Of a DNA stretch of 64,000 nt, positions 21,174 to 29,285 are shown in pieces. How positions within the stretch are numbered: position 1 is the stretch's first letter; every line of letters starts with the position of its first letter. The position numbers were made by a program, and so were the translations under genes. The DNA comes from an uncultured archaeon (GTDB lineage: Archaea; Asgardarchaeota; Lokiarchaeia; Sigyniarchaeales; SOKP01): contig CAZOYD010000005.1 in NCBI GenBank assembly GCA_964583985.1, positions 1-64,000 on the forward strand, given 5' to 3'. The notes under the pieces are model-generated. The model was not told the DNA's origin. It made no database searches and saw only the letters and a list, made by a program, of their open reading frames with translations.

Positions 21174-21614
21174 TTGCATTCAGGTCACAAAATTAATGGT
21201 CTTATTTCTGTAGTTGGATATGGAACTTTTATTACTAGAGGTTATTGGAAAAATAAGCATGATGTAGAACCTTGTTTAGTACATAATTATTCGAGAGTTT
21301 TCCCTCCAAATTATTGGTTCCCCGTTATATTTCCTTCGAATGAGTCATTTTGGGCGTTAAAATTTGATGTAACCCAAGAAGATCTAAATCAATTAGATGA
21401 CGATGAAGGTGTTGATTTAGGTTTATTTGAACGTATTCAGATAACTGTTGAGTTAAAGACTCGGGAGAAAATTGCAGCGTTTTTGTATATTCTCACGGAA
21501 AAATTGATTAATTCTCAAAAACTATCATTGGAATTAGATATGAATGATAGATGGAAAGAACATCTCAAAAAGTTTCAAGAAATCGTGCAATTATTCCCAG
21601 AATTAATTCTTTAA
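21174..21614 (+). CDS. Gamma-glutamylcyclotransferase-fold protein
   Basis: VGYGTF and LDDDEG...FER motifs. Start codon uncertain. Confidence 0.7.
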   Translation: MHSGHKINGLISVVGYGTFITRGYWKNKHDVEPCLVHNYSRVFPPNYWFPVIFPSNESFWALKFDVTQEDLNQLDDDEGVDLGLFERIQITVELKTREKIAAFLYILTEKLINSQKLSLELDMNDRWKEHLKKFQEIVQLFPELIL

Positions 21615-25157: not shown

Positions 25158-26177
25158 GTGGTTATTTTAATCACAAAAAATTTAAAACGATGCATTTTAA
25201 TTTATTTTGATCTCATTTTTAGCATGTTGATTTGGAATGTGAATCAGAATATTTTCGGGAATCCCTTTTTGCCTTGCTTCATCTTATCTACCACAACATT
25301 CTTGATTATTTATACTCCCTTCGAAATATATTGGAGTTTTGCGGATTTATGGTATGATAGGTGGGATCCCCTATCTTTAAAAGATTATGTAACAAAATTT
25401 GAAAGAATTCCAGTAGAACCAGCTAGAAATAAGAAAAAAGAAATAATTGCCCTCCTTGTTTCATCAAAAAATAGAACTCTAGTTGAGAGAATTAATTGCA
25501 TTATAATAATAGTCCATGGGTTTTCTGATACGAATGAATCACTTCAGAATTATTTTCTCCCTTTTGCACAACTTGGATATGTAGTCCTATCCTATGATGC
25601 TCGAGGCACCGGAAAATCAAAAAAAGTTGGGAGAAGAAGTCAATTCTTAAAAAGGATTGATGATTTTCAGAAAATCTTAAAATGGATATCAACAAACAAC
25701 GATTTAAATAAAAAGAGGATTTGTTGCGTGGGATTTAGTATTGGAGCATTGACCACATTGTGTGGCGGATTCGATAATGACAGGATCGACAAAATAATTG
25801 CTATCTCTGCTATTTCTGACTACAGAAAAAATCTGCCTCGATTTAACATTATTGTCATGCTAAGCTATTTTTTGAAGGGTGTAAAACTTTTTCCAAATCG
25901 CGAAGAAAATAAAAAATTATCTCCATTATATCTAATAAATCAATGCAAGAAACAAGTTTCTGAAGAGAATTGGAAAATTCTATCAAATAGAGTACTGTTA
26001 ATACACAGTAGAAATGACAAGATAATTAAAATGATTAATTTCGAAGAAAATGCCGAAGCTTTAGATCTTCCAACAGAAAATAGGTTGATCATAAACAAAG
26101 GAGGTCACACTCATAAAAAAAATGAACTAATTTTGATTGGTCGTTCATTAGAGTTCCTTGAATCTGACTCAAGATGA
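25158..26177 (+). CDS. Membrane-anchored alpha/beta hydrolase
   Basis: Hydrophobic N-terminus, HGFSD, DARGTGKS, GFSIG, HSRND and GGH. Confidence 0.8.
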   Translation: MVILITKNLKRCILIYFDLIFSMLIWNVNQNIFGNPFLPCFILSTTTFLIIYTPFEIYWSFADLWYDRWDPLSLKDYVTKFERIPVEPARNKKKEIIALLVSSKNRTLVERINCIIIIVHGFSDTNESLQNYFLPFAQLGYVVLSYDARGTGKSKKVGRRSQFLKRIDDFQKILKWISTNNDLNKKRICCVGFSIGALTTLCGGFDNDRIDKIIAISAISDYRKNLPRFNIIVMLSYFLKGVKLFPNREENKKLSPLYLINQCKKQVSEENWKILSNRVLLIHSRNDKIIKMINFEENAEALDLPTENRLIINKGGHTHKKNELILIGRSLEFLESDSR

Positions 26178-26247: not shown

Positions 26248-26433
26248 ATGAATTATTGCCAAATTTGTAAGCAACCAATCTTAGATAAAGATTTGAGTAA
26301 AACTTATCAATTTACATTGGGGAATATGATTAATGGGAACTTTTTAGGCATGAAAAAACAATATTTCCATGTAAGATGCATGGAATTAGAGAATAATAAG
26401 AATCCTAAAATAATTAGTATTTTAAATCATTGA
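26248..26433 (+). CDS. Small CxxC...HxxC zinc-finger protein
   Basis: CQICKQPI...YFHVRC. Shine-Dalgarno-like AGGTGA lies 6 nt before the ATG, with a TATA-like element upstream. Confidence 0.7.
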   Translation: MNYCQICKQPILDKDLSKTYQFTLGNMINGNFLGMKKQYFHVRCMELENNKNPKIISILNH

Positions 26434-27881
26434 AACCTAACAATTTTGTCCCAATTAGAAAAATTGATAATTTTTTCATAATAATTAATGATATTTGTAA
26501 ATATAACACAACTTATACAAAAAAGATCAATGAAATCCTCCCGTTGTAAACCAAGCATTGCTGCGTTTGATTTTGAAAAACCAAGTCCTCTGGTAACCTC
26601 AATCTGACCATTAAACCCACTTAAGTTTACAACGAATTCTTGTTTTTTTCCCCCATTTATATAAGAATCACGAGAAATCCTTGCTAAACCTCCTATTGGT
26701 TGGATGATACCACTTGTATTTGCAACATAAATTCTAATATCATATGTGTGTTTTCCACCTCTCCAATTAATTAAGCAAAAATCTGCTAATTCTTGGATAG
26801 TATAAGGAAAAGGGTTTCGTTGTGGTCCAAATTTATTATAGAATTCTTTTTGACTGGTTTTTATAATTCTCCTTATATCCTCTTTTTTTTGATTTTGAGA
26901 GATAATCAAGACCCCCGCACCTCCAGAACCTCCACTTGGTTTTATGACAAATGATCTTTGTTCATTTTTAATCAAATATAATAATTTTTGAAGCATCTCC
27001 TTTTCTGAAAAACATTTTGTGAAAATTAAGTGCTTTAGGTTAAATTCACTAAGAACGTCTTGAGAAAAAAAACTAGCTAAATATGTCAAAGATTTATCAT
27101 CTGTTATTTTAAAAACTGGATTTACTATTATGGTCTTAATTTCTCTATAATTCTTAATCACGTCGTTATTAAAATTTTTATCATTAAAACGCCTTGCGAT
27201 ACCATCTCCAATTAAAACATGGATTTTTTCCTCTTTCAATCTAACCCAATTATTACTATAAGAAATTAAGGAAGAGATTTGATTATAATCCGCCACGAGA
27301 AAGATAAGTTCTGCTTTGTAATTAGGATCATAGTTGGATATATTAAAGATTTTTAAAGTAAAACCTTCCTTTTTCATTCTTTTTCTTAAATATTCAATCA
27401 AGATAACTTTTTCATGAATTAACCTGTCGTCTATAGGTAATCCAATGAGTATGAGAACTTTTTCGGTTCCTTCCTTTCTTTTTTGAATAGCCTTTTCAAT
27501 TGCTTGATAATAACCTTGATAAAGCATTTCTTGTTGTTTAATAGTTAGAATTGAAAGTCCACGATGTGAACCACCATTAGTTTCCAATAGGAAAAATTTA
27601 TTGCCATTGTTATTATTACTGACCATGAAATCAATACTTCCTACATAGAAAGCATCCTGATGAGTTATAACATTTACTTTTTTATCCGTTAACTTCTTTA
27701 GCGCTTCAGATCGTACTCCATCTATGAATGAATCGTCTTGTGACTGCCTTAAATCTGCGAATGAAATTAAATTAAGACCTAAGGATTCTCCTAATTTTAT
27801 CAGTTCTAAATCTGAATCGGTAATATTCTTAGACATTAAATTTAGAAATTTGGCAAATAAATTGTCTACTAAAAAAATCAC
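26427..27881 (-). CDS. Circularly permuted ATP-grasp ligase (YheC/D- or TTL-like motifs)
   Basis: N-terminal SIDFMV...FLLETN, then later DDK, VIKPSGGSGGAGV, IQE, YDIRIYV, GLARIS and VVNLS. Confidence 0.7.
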   Translation of the reverse strand: MIFLVDNLFAKFLNLMSKNITDSDLELIKLGESLGLNLISFADLRQSQDDSFIDGVRSEALKKLTDKKVNVITHQDAFYVGSIDFMVSNNNNGNKFFLLETNGGSHRGLSILTIKQQEMLYQGYYQAIEKAIQKRKEGTEKVLILIGLPIDDRLIHEKVILIEYLRKRMKKEGFTLKIFNISNYDPNYKAELIFLVADYNQISSLISYSNNWVRLKEEKIHVLIGDGIARRFNDKNFNNDVIKNYREIKTIIVNPVFKITDDKSLTYLASFFSQDVLSEFNLKHLIFTKCFSEKEMLQKLLYLIKNEQRSFVIKPSGGSGGAGVLIISQNQKKEDIRRIIKTSQKEFYNKFGPQRNPFPYTIQELADFCLINWRGGKHTYDIRIYVANTSGIIQPIGGLARISRDSYINGGKKQEFVVNLSGFNGQIEVTRGLGFSKSNAAMLGLQREDFIDLFCISCVIFTNIINYYEKIINFSNWDKIVRFQ

Positions 27882-27989: not shown

Positions 27990-29195
27990 TTATAAGTATA
28001 AATATCCTTGATGATTACCTTTGGTGCTCAATCTCAAACTTCCAAGAATAATTTTTTTTACTTGTGCTTGCTCCTTGTAATTCAAATCTGAAAAAAATAA
28101 TATGTATCTTTTTTCGAGATTTATTACAAATAGTAAACCAATTTTGATTAGTTTGGAATCTTCGGTCATTAACGAGATTATTACATAATGATAAGGCAAA
28201 TTAACTAAGCTCCCAACATTTATTTCCTGTTCAACTAGCGTGTTATTTTCCATATCAAAATCCATTTTAATGAATTTAATATCCTTTAAGGGCATAGAAA
28301 TTTTTCTATAATTTTCTAAAATTTTCGCAAATTGACTTTGTCTTAAAAATCTTCTTTCTTCCTTATCCTTATCATAGAAATATTTATTCTCTTGTTTAAT
28401 TAAAAATATTTTTCTCTTTTTTGATTTAGCAGCATTTTTTTCTATCTCTTTTAATTCCTCAATAGTATCATCATGAAATACAATAATAATGTCTGGATCA
28501 ACAGTTTCTATGAAATAATTTTTATATACAATTCCTGCCTCAGTTTTTATCCAACCATCACTATCTATTAATATGACGTTTGTTTCTTTATGCTTTTCTA
28601 AATAAGAATCAATTAAACTATTACAAGAATGTGCAACAATGAATTTATAATTTGATTTTGGAAATGTACTCCCTATGAATATAGTATCTTCAGTTTCGAC
28701 ATTTTCACTTGAAATTATATAATCCTTTATTTCGCCAATATTTAGGGTTGTTGGAAGATACATCATTTGCTGCCCTAAATCTGAATCAAGATACGCTCCT
28801 TTGTATCCTGCTCTCAAAATATTATTGGCTAAATACTTTATTAAAGTCGTTTTACCACCACTTATCCCTAACACCATCACTTTTAATGGGTTTGTTTCAC
28901 CTTTTTTTTTAATTTCCTCTAAAATTTTATTCTTTACGTCCTCCCATTCCTTAATGATGCTATTTTCTTCTATTTCTGACAGATTGTCCTTATTGTTAGT
29001 ATAAACATCTAATTTGGACGATTCAATTGAATAGATTGGATATACATTTGCGCCTGGAACAATTATTGTATTTTTTTTTTCAATTTTGTCAGGTACAAAA
29101 ATCTTTCCGAAAACTTCTATCTTGCCCTCCACTAAAACTATTCGTGTAGGACCTTGAACCAATAATGTATGACCTTCTGAAATATTCTTTATCAT
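27990..29195 (-). CDS. Clp1/Grc3/Nol9-family polynucleotide 5'-kinase
   Basis: LVQGP...GKIEVFG N-terminal domain, GGKTT P-loop, DSDLGQ, IDSDGWI and ERRFLR. Start placed at ATG 29195. Confidence 0.82.
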   Translation of the reverse strand: MIKNISEGHTLLVQGPTRIVLVEGKIEVFGKIFVPDKIEKKNTIIVPGANVYPIYSIESSKLDVYTNNKDNLSEIEENSIIKEWEDVKNKILEEIKKKGETNPLKVMVLGISGGKTTLIKYLANNILRAGYKGAYLDSDLGQQMMYLPTTLNIGEIKDYIISSENVETEDTIFIGSTFPKSNYKFIVAHSCNSLIDSYLEKHKETNVILIDSDGWIKTEAGIVYKNYFIETVDPDIIIVFHDDTIEELKEIEKNAAKSKKRKIFLIKQENKYFYDKDKEERRFLRQSQFAKILENYRKISMPLKDIKFIKMDFDMENNTLVEQEINVGSLVNLPYHYVIISLMTEDSKLIKIGLLFVINLEKRYILFFSDLNYKEQAQVKKIILGSLRLSTKGNHQGYLYL

Positions 29196-29285
29196 AAATT
29201 TCTCATTTCTATTAGTATTGTTATGACCAAAACATACTCGCAATTAATGTAATTAATTAATGAAAATATACTTTATTTTTCTCTT

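Follow-up and report, generated by a model that had tools for sequence, protein, structure and literature searches.

In yeast glutathione synthetase, the early strands form the floor of the nucleotide site, and the Mg ligands D130 and E146 stand 16 residues apart and are followed by two phosphate-binding lysines (PMC2845819). Glutathionylspermidine synthetase, YgiC/YjfC and the fungal enzyme Cp1B are also circularly permuted ATP-grasp ligases and form a bond between a carboxylate and an amine or amino acid; Cp1B couples epoxysuccinate with an amino acid (PMC12568646), and YgiC and YjfC appear as peptide–spermidine ligases in the reference list of that paper. In the classical ATP-grasp enzymes YheC/D, RimK/LysX, prokaryotic GshB and TTL/TTLL, the ExN motif is C-terminal. 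We analysed a stretch of 64,000 nucleotides (the window; positions 1 to 64,000 of contig CAZOYD010000005.1, assembly GCA_964583985.1) from an uncultured archaeon of the Lokiarchaeia, in which a preliminary description had pointed to a gene for a permuted ATP-grasp enzyme, here called the ligase. We find that the product is probably a stand-alone permuted ATP-grasp carboxylate–amine ligase that works through an acyl-phosphate and acts on a small metabolite or short peptide. The open reading frame (ORF) lies exactly where it had been placed, and on re-reading the 484-residue product we recovered the listed motifs at their positions (Table 1). The putative metal-binding D..ExN hairpin (D84, E100 and N102) precedes TDDK, the VIKP/Gly-rich loop, IQE, DIR and VVN. 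This segment (residues 81–108) is the part that classical ATP-grasp enzymes place C-terminally, and a search beyond residue 422 of the ligase revealed no second ExN motif.

An AlphaFold2 model of the ligase, built from a 59-sequence alignment, had a predicted local distance difference test score of 92.3 and a predicted template modelling score of 0.92; in it, strands 80–90 and 93–102 pair as a hairpin, and a Rossmann-like domain follows from near residue 142. The best matches of the model in the Protein Data Bank (PDB) by Foldseek were all permuted ligases, aligned over about 420–490 columns: glutathione synthetases of human, yeast, plant and trypanosome, the entries 3k1t and 3n6x, glutathionylspermidine and trypanothione synthetases, YgiC/YjfC and Cp1B. 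VIA-align, an independent all-against-representatives search, gave the highest Z score to 3k1t (14.8 over 330 residues, model residues 61–472 against chain residues 25–423), with glutathione synthetases at 11–13 (13.2 for the yeast enzyme), YgiC at 12.5, glutathionylspermidine synthetase at 12.4, 3n6x at 11.6 and Cp1B at 9.8. Alignments with the permuted enzymes were colinear from about model residue 20–60 to about 440–470. Classical enzymes aligned with model residues 140–466 only (Z of 12.7 and 11.9 for ArgX and LysX, about 12 for Ddl, 9.3 for both RimK and TTL, and 7.8 for TTLL7); these alignments start at the pre-ATP-grasp domain, near residue 140, and end short of the C-terminal ExN strands of those enzymes, covering residues 1–231 of 281 in ArgX. 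In total, 37 PDB representatives reached a Z of at least 8, and all 42 matches listed (down to Z 8.0) were ATP-grasp enzymes. The match is thus colinear over the full length with permuted enzymes and truncated with classical ones, and the permutation is therefore one that the ligase has in common with the glutathione synthetase class.

Profile comparisons revealed the same exchange of order. We used hhalign to align the family profile with 29 RimK/LysX-like proteins of the same archaeal family. The segment TDDK..VIKPxGGSGGxG paired with RimK residues 97–151, and in an alternative alignment in native order the FFLLETNGGS region (residues 91–112) paired with the C-terminal ExN motif of RimK at 248–267 (pairwise E value of 0.017). 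We also un-permuted the ligase in silico, joining residues 140–472 to residues 68–139. Searched with HMMER against the ORFs of this genome, the un-permuted sequence matched the ligase gene alone; in hhalign, the un-permuted profile gave no longer alignment with the RimK-like proteins and none across the new junction. As in the yeast enzyme, D84 and E100 of the ligase are 16 residues apart and are followed by two lysines, K263 and K314. D84, E100, N102, G103, K263, K314, P315, G321, G323, R383 and N419 are unchanged, or almost unchanged, in relatives with identities down to about 17–20%, and conservation in the family likewise takes in K263, K314, G317–G323, E364 and D84/E100/N102. The permuted order that had been proposed is thus borne out by the fold model, by the contrast between colinear permuted and truncated classical matches, and by the profile–profile order swap. 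With its predicted three-domain fold, two lysines, lid loop, hinge glutamate and D..ExN site, the modelled ligase belongs to the ATP-grasp superfamily and, within it, to the circularly permuted, glutathione-synthetase-type class.

No Pfam or NCBIfam model attains its curated cut-off on the ligase. The best match, YheC/D (PF14398), scored 25.7 bits against a cut-off of 26.8 and covered just profile positions 27–150 of 255. Lower scores came from ATPgrasp_ST (21.6 bits; cut-off, 31.4), prokaryotic GSH-S_ATP (17.5 bits; cut-off, 23), CP_ATPgrasp_2 (PF14403; 16 bits; cut-off, 32; positions 224–373 of 374) and CP_ATPgrasp_1 (PF04174; 12.5 bits; cut-off, 23.1; positions 227–324 of 332). Across 44 relatives, weak matches (E ≤ 0.01) fell to ATPgrasp_ST in 13, YheC/D in 8, GSH-S_ATP in 7, and TTL and CP_ATPgrasp_2 in 2 each, and the family profile matched TTLL7 (4ylr) over the lid and FDLR region with an E value of 5.5e-5. 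At E ≤ 1, nothing on the ligase was matched by the TTL family (PF03133), by the eukaryotic glutathione synthetase models of Pfam and NCBIfam or by the hidden Markov model (HMM) of Pfam GshA (PF08886); the protein-language-model neighbours of the ligase include a PF08886 cluster (score of 0.92). These profile scores agree with the earlier remark that the wording of the motifs is closer to TTL and YheC/D; ATPgrasp_ST and prokaryotic GshB, too, resemble it more than the Pfam CP_ATPgrasp models do.

The closest structural match, 3k1t from Methylobacillus flagellatus ('putative gamma-glutamylcysteine synthetase'), shares the permuted order, including the C-terminal helix. With an identity of 13%, the likeness is one of fold and not a PF08886 sequence match; 3k1t, which presumably belongs to Pfam GshA (PF08886), is a structural-genomics entry for which we saw no evidence of proven activity. 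The eukaryotic glutathione and homoglutathione synthetases (2hgs, 1m0w, 3kal and 5oes) are full-length Foldseek matches with E values of 1e-13 to 1e-10 and, as predicted for the ligase, have the Mg hairpin ahead of two phosphate-binding lysines and the Gly loop. Identity to them is 10–14%, with no significant sequence match in the PDB listing (best E value of 0.64, for the family profile against the potato enzyme). The Gly loop of the ligase has no glutamate, whereas that of the yeast enzyme has E386, and the ligase, unlike its eukaryotic counterparts, carries an extra C-terminal helical segment past about residue 441. No GCS2 first-step ligase was found in this genome (other first-step ligase families were not searched), so no partner of the glutathione synthetase type was found and a glutathione-like two-step pathway gains no support.

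Glutathionylspermidine synthetase, YgiC/YjfC and Cp1B are colinear with the ligase (Z of 9.8–12.5) and have no sequence-level match to it; their substrates (glutathione or a peptide with spermidine, and epoxysuccinate with an amino acid) find no support as substrates of the ligase. The CP_ATPgrasp_1/2 families, to which 3n6x belongs, have the permutation in common with the ligase, and their weak matches run to the profile ends. Unlike the genes of CP_ATPgrasp loci, the ligase scores far under the cut-offs and has no alpha-E or transglutaminase neighbours, an absence already noted in the preliminary description; its neighbours in the window encode Clp1, GNAT, FmdE, an oxidoreductase, an alpha/beta hydrolase and a methylase. 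The nearest wording to the ATP-binding half of the ligase is that of the classical enzymes, which share its KP-GxGxG, FDLRxY and R..N motifs and differ in the place of ExN, which is N-terminal in the ligase.

More than 400 proteins are 48–82% identical to the ligase; nearly all come from Loki-type Asgard metagenome-assembled genomes (MAGs), and they are annotated as hypothetical only. Searching 1.84 billion representatives exhaustively with phmmer gave 82 matches, about 45 of them full length, with identities down to 20%. The gene is present in 120 of the 134 genomes of its own Lokiarchaeial GTDB family (G000 and 119 of the 133 others); a sister family has it in 2 of its 14 genomes and another in one of its two. 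Because such identity is kept in so many proteins and family genomes, the motif set is not due to chance. Other Asgard families have relatives of about 400 amino acids and the same layout, with an N-terminal D..LEAN followed by PDxIIRR, ITGxK, KP..G..GK, VQE, FDxR and SNxSxGG; two of these permuted relatives exceed the YheC/D cut-off, with 57 and 35.1 bits. Classical YheC/D, sought as a comparator, was found in just 2 of 120 Asgard genomes. A Cyanobacteriota MAG contributes one distant relative, and bacterial clusters are among the protein-language-model neighbours. The suggestion of an undescribed Asgard system therefore stands in part: no curated model names the family, and our searches of the literature on Asgard ATP-grasp and TTL/TTLL proteins and on 3K1T found no description of it. 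It is not Asgard-only, with permuted relatives in other Asgard lineages and in at least one bacterial MAG.

Two side observations concern these relatives. Longer fused forms were searched for among close relatives and none was found; in a distant metagenomic relative of 674 amino acids (P0198), the permuted ATP-grasp is preceded by a fused GPP34 domain, of the Golgi phosphoprotein 3 family. In other Asgard families we observed a conserved three-gene cluster (L053:771-4356, L054:3982-7643, L055:4038-7693, L056:6130-9722 and L058:6004-9620) that contains the permuted YheC/D-like ATP-grasp of about 400 amino acids, a protein of about 305–325 amino acids with a sub-threshold match to N-formylglutamate amidohydrolase (FGase), and a GCS2-type carboxylate–amine ligase of about 450–490 amino acids. 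The two-ligase logic of this cluster recalls glutathione-type peptide synthesis.

In many relatives the ligase gene has a partner, the one gene to which it is tightly linked. This divergent M14-like gene of about 390–410 codons lies immediately downstream in 13 of the 20 short loci and in 13 of the 14 long ones, and likewise follows a 44%-identical orthologue of another family. Its product carries the HxE, NPxG, NLNR and DFHE motifs of the M14 type; its Pfam matches, both sub-threshold, are to AstE/AspA (19 bits, the best) and Peptidase_M14 (16 bits). Among the 134 family genomes, the gene occurs in 86, three of which hold stop-containing remnants. It always adjoins the ligase and is never found in a genome truly without one; in an apparent exception (G077), the ligase is cut by the contig end. 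At least 34 genomes, at least 25 of them of this genus, have the ligase without the M14-like gene, and among the other 40 genomes of the genus the ligase is present in 33 and the M14-like gene in 8. These counts indicate a one-way dependence, of the hydrolase on the ligase. In the genome studied here, which is 100% complete by marker genes, neither a protein search nor a six-frame HMM search detected an M14-like gene at E ≤ 1.

The three remnants lie just downstream of an intact ligase (L092:10712-10906 in G191, G131:C22:9388-9564 and G280:C184:21162-21362) and show recent decay of the M14-like gene in several lineages. An orthologue from a different order, at L051:7189-8643 on the forward strand (G244), has no M14-like gene; a convergent gene for an M20-family peptidase lies 30 nucleotides from the end of that ligase.

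The ligase would use ATP to phosphorylate the carboxylate of its substrate, and an amine, from an amino acid or a polyamine, would then attack the acyl-phosphate to yield an amide, ADP and inorganic phosphate. Carboxylate groups may be held by the NGGSxRG loop that follows the ExN strand and by the invariant arginines R107, R231, R401 and R431. Where relatives encode the M14-like zinc hydrolase, as many do, this enzyme probably undoes the ligase reaction or trims what it makes; here and in most of the genus the hydrolase appears to have been lost, so that the ligase would act alone. We lean, a little less firmly, towards a small metabolite or short peptide as the substrate, for four reasons: every characterised full-length structural neighbour makes small-molecule or short-peptide products; the best weak match of the M14-like partner is to N-acyl-amino-acid deacylases (AstE/AspA); the nearest Asgard outgroup lies beside a GCS2 ligase and a sub-cut-off FGase-like gene, which suggests operons of a metabolic type; and no gene for a substrate protein is linked to the ligase.

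Several points weigh against this reading. No biosynthetic neighbour gene is conserved beside the ligase. Four near-complete genomes of the same genus have lost the ligase by clean deletion, and the gene is therefore dispensable. We infer the position of D84, E100 and N102 at the ATP site from fold-alignment ranges and motif spacing. The fold is also compatible with a protein C-terminus as acceptor, as the match of the classical part to ArgX/LysX (Z of 12.7) illustrates; ArgX and LysX act on LysW. An ATP-grasp enzyme paired with an M14 carboxypeptidase is, moreover, the logic of the tubulin glutamylation cycle.

These last points belong to an alternative in which the ligase would attach an amino acid reversibly, as a tag, to the C-terminus or a side chain of a protein or ribosomal peptide, in the style of TTL/TTLL, RimK or LysX, with the M14-like carboxypeptidase of relatives as the eraser and this genome as writer-only. 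We regard it as unlikely. It is consistent with the YheC/D-, ATPgrasp_ST-, GshB- and TTL-like wording of the ATP-binding half, with the TTLL7 and ArgX/LysX matches, and with an M14-like partner that never occurs without the ligase, a pairing that mirrors TTLL and CCP. The four observations given above for a small substrate count against it, as do the low scores of TTL/TTLL structures (Z of 7.8–9.5, over residues of about 140–470 only) and the fact that most of the genus has a ligase without an eraser. More doubtful still is the fuller version, a prokaryotic counterpart of TTLL/CCP that would write a reversible C-terminal tag on an Asgard protein, with an M14-like eraser and a writer-only genus. 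The (poly)glutamylation of proteins or peptides put forward in the preliminary description is accordingly not borne out: the nearest folds are small-molecule or short-peptide ligases, no substrate gene is linked, and the M14-like gene is absent here. Should the product prove to be a protein tag, the finding would touch on how modifications like the eukaryotic tubulin code arose.

That the enzyme is an ATP-grasp phosphotransferase (kinase) and not a ligase is very improbable. Inositol-phosphate kinases and synapsin share the fold at Z of 8–10, but these matches are far weaker than those of the ligases and cover the classical part only, and the characterised matches in the permuted class are ligases only. 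We likewise give little credence to the idea that the gene has been decaying as a relic here since its partner was lost. The partner is absent from this genome, remnants of it survive in G191, G131 and G280, and some genomes of the genus have lost both genes; against this, the ORF is full length, every invariant residue is intact in this copy, and ligase without hydrolase is the norm in the genus.

In each of 19 related loci, the gene directly upstream of the ligase, on its own strand, encodes a Clp1-type polynucleotide kinase. This adjacency is uninformative, because the whole region of about 20 kb is syntenic across the family, Clp1 and the ligase have extra genes between them in 4 of the 14 long loci, orthologues of the ligase in two other families have no Clp1 neighbour, Clp1 is the sole copy in the genome, and Clp1, a small ORF and the alpha/beta hydrolase remain in place in the four genomes that lack the ligase. 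Clp1 is not functionally tied to the ligase, and its position reflects family-wide gene order. A joint role of the two in the repair or modification of RNA ends, which the adjacency might suggest, is barely credible, given these observations and the absence of any RNA or DNA ligase among the matches listed in either fold search. The related idea of an RNA ligase was rejected on the same grounds and on mechanism: C12orf29, an ATP-grasp-like RNA ligase similar to Rnl-type enzymes, works by way of a KxDG lysine-adenylate (PMC11071452).

The ligase is single copy, and its GC content of about 28% matches that of its surroundings. It has two candidate start codons: GTG 27881 opens the ORF, and the alternative ATG 27836 corresponds to Met16, which is invariant among relatives and at which some database records begin; residues 1–15 can be aligned in orthologues of the same genus.

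Table 1 Features of the ligase gene and its immediate neighbours in the window
Feature	Position	Strand	Basis or remark
Permuted ATP-grasp ligase gene	26427..27881	-	484 aa (amino acids) from GTG 27881, or 469 aa from ATG 27836
N-terminal beta-hairpin, aa 81–108, with GSIDFMV (aa 81–87) and FFLLETNGGSHRG (aa 96–108); predicted Mg ligands D84/E100/N102 and conserved NGGSxRG loop	27558..27641	-	Conservation, AlphaFold strands 80–90 and 93–102, hhalign
Pre-ATP-grasp (Rossmann-like) domain, aa ~140–232, ending with conserved IGDGxARR (IGDGIARR, aa 224–231)	27186..27464	-	AlphaFold and structural alignment
TDDK, aa 260–263; K263, predicted first phosphate-binding lysine	27093..27104	-	Pairs with DK of RimK-like proteins
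VIKPSGGSGGAGV, aa 312–324; predicted second phosphate-binding lysine K314 and Gly-rich lid loop	26910..26948	-	Profile matches, hhalign
C-terminal active-site half: PFPYTIQE hinge (aa 357–364; E364), YDIRIYV (aa 380–386; R383), GGLARIS (aa 397–403; R401), VVNLSG (aa 417–422; N419)	26616..26813	-	Family profile, conservation
Clp1-type P-loop polynucleotide kinase, directly upstream (context only)	27990..29243	-	102 bits to CLP1_P
Membrane-anchored alpha/beta hydrolase (S33/S9-like), convergent (context only)	25158..26177	+	Kept in ligase-less genomes

The enzyme is of a kind already known, a permuted ATP-grasp amide ligase. Its family is unnamed, widespread and strongly conserved in Asgard archaea and covered by no curated model, with YheC/D-like wording and a different partner, and is orphaned in this genome. 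New in this analysis are the family-wide counts of ligase and M14-like gene, the three genotypes at one locus and the evidence against a functional link to Clp1. The placement in the permuted glutathione-synthetase-type class points to ATP-dependent amide formation as a chemistry that can be tested. The three genotypes (ligase with hydrolase, ligase alone and neither) offer a natural comparative experiment for finding the product by metabolomics or proteomics; were it a metabolite, it would be an amide compound of Lokiarchaeia new to knowledge.

We made three further observations in the surroundings of the gene. Between the alpha/beta hydrolase and the ligase lies an ORF of 61 amino acids (window 26248-26433, forward strand) that has CxxC at its N-terminal end and HxxC further along and is kept in the same place at 35–47% identity in at least 10 related loci, including ligase-less genomes; it probably encodes a real small zinc-binding protein. 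An AIG2/gamma-glutamyl-cyclotransferase-like gene (window 21174-21614, forward strand) lies 5 kb from the ligase and occurs in some syntenic loci only, unlinked to the presence of the ligase. The P-loop of the Clp1-type kinase reads LG(I/L)SxGKT(T/A) in 14 of 15 copies inspected (the L096 copy was not read), with three residues between its glycines, compared with four in the usual GxxxxGK(S/T).

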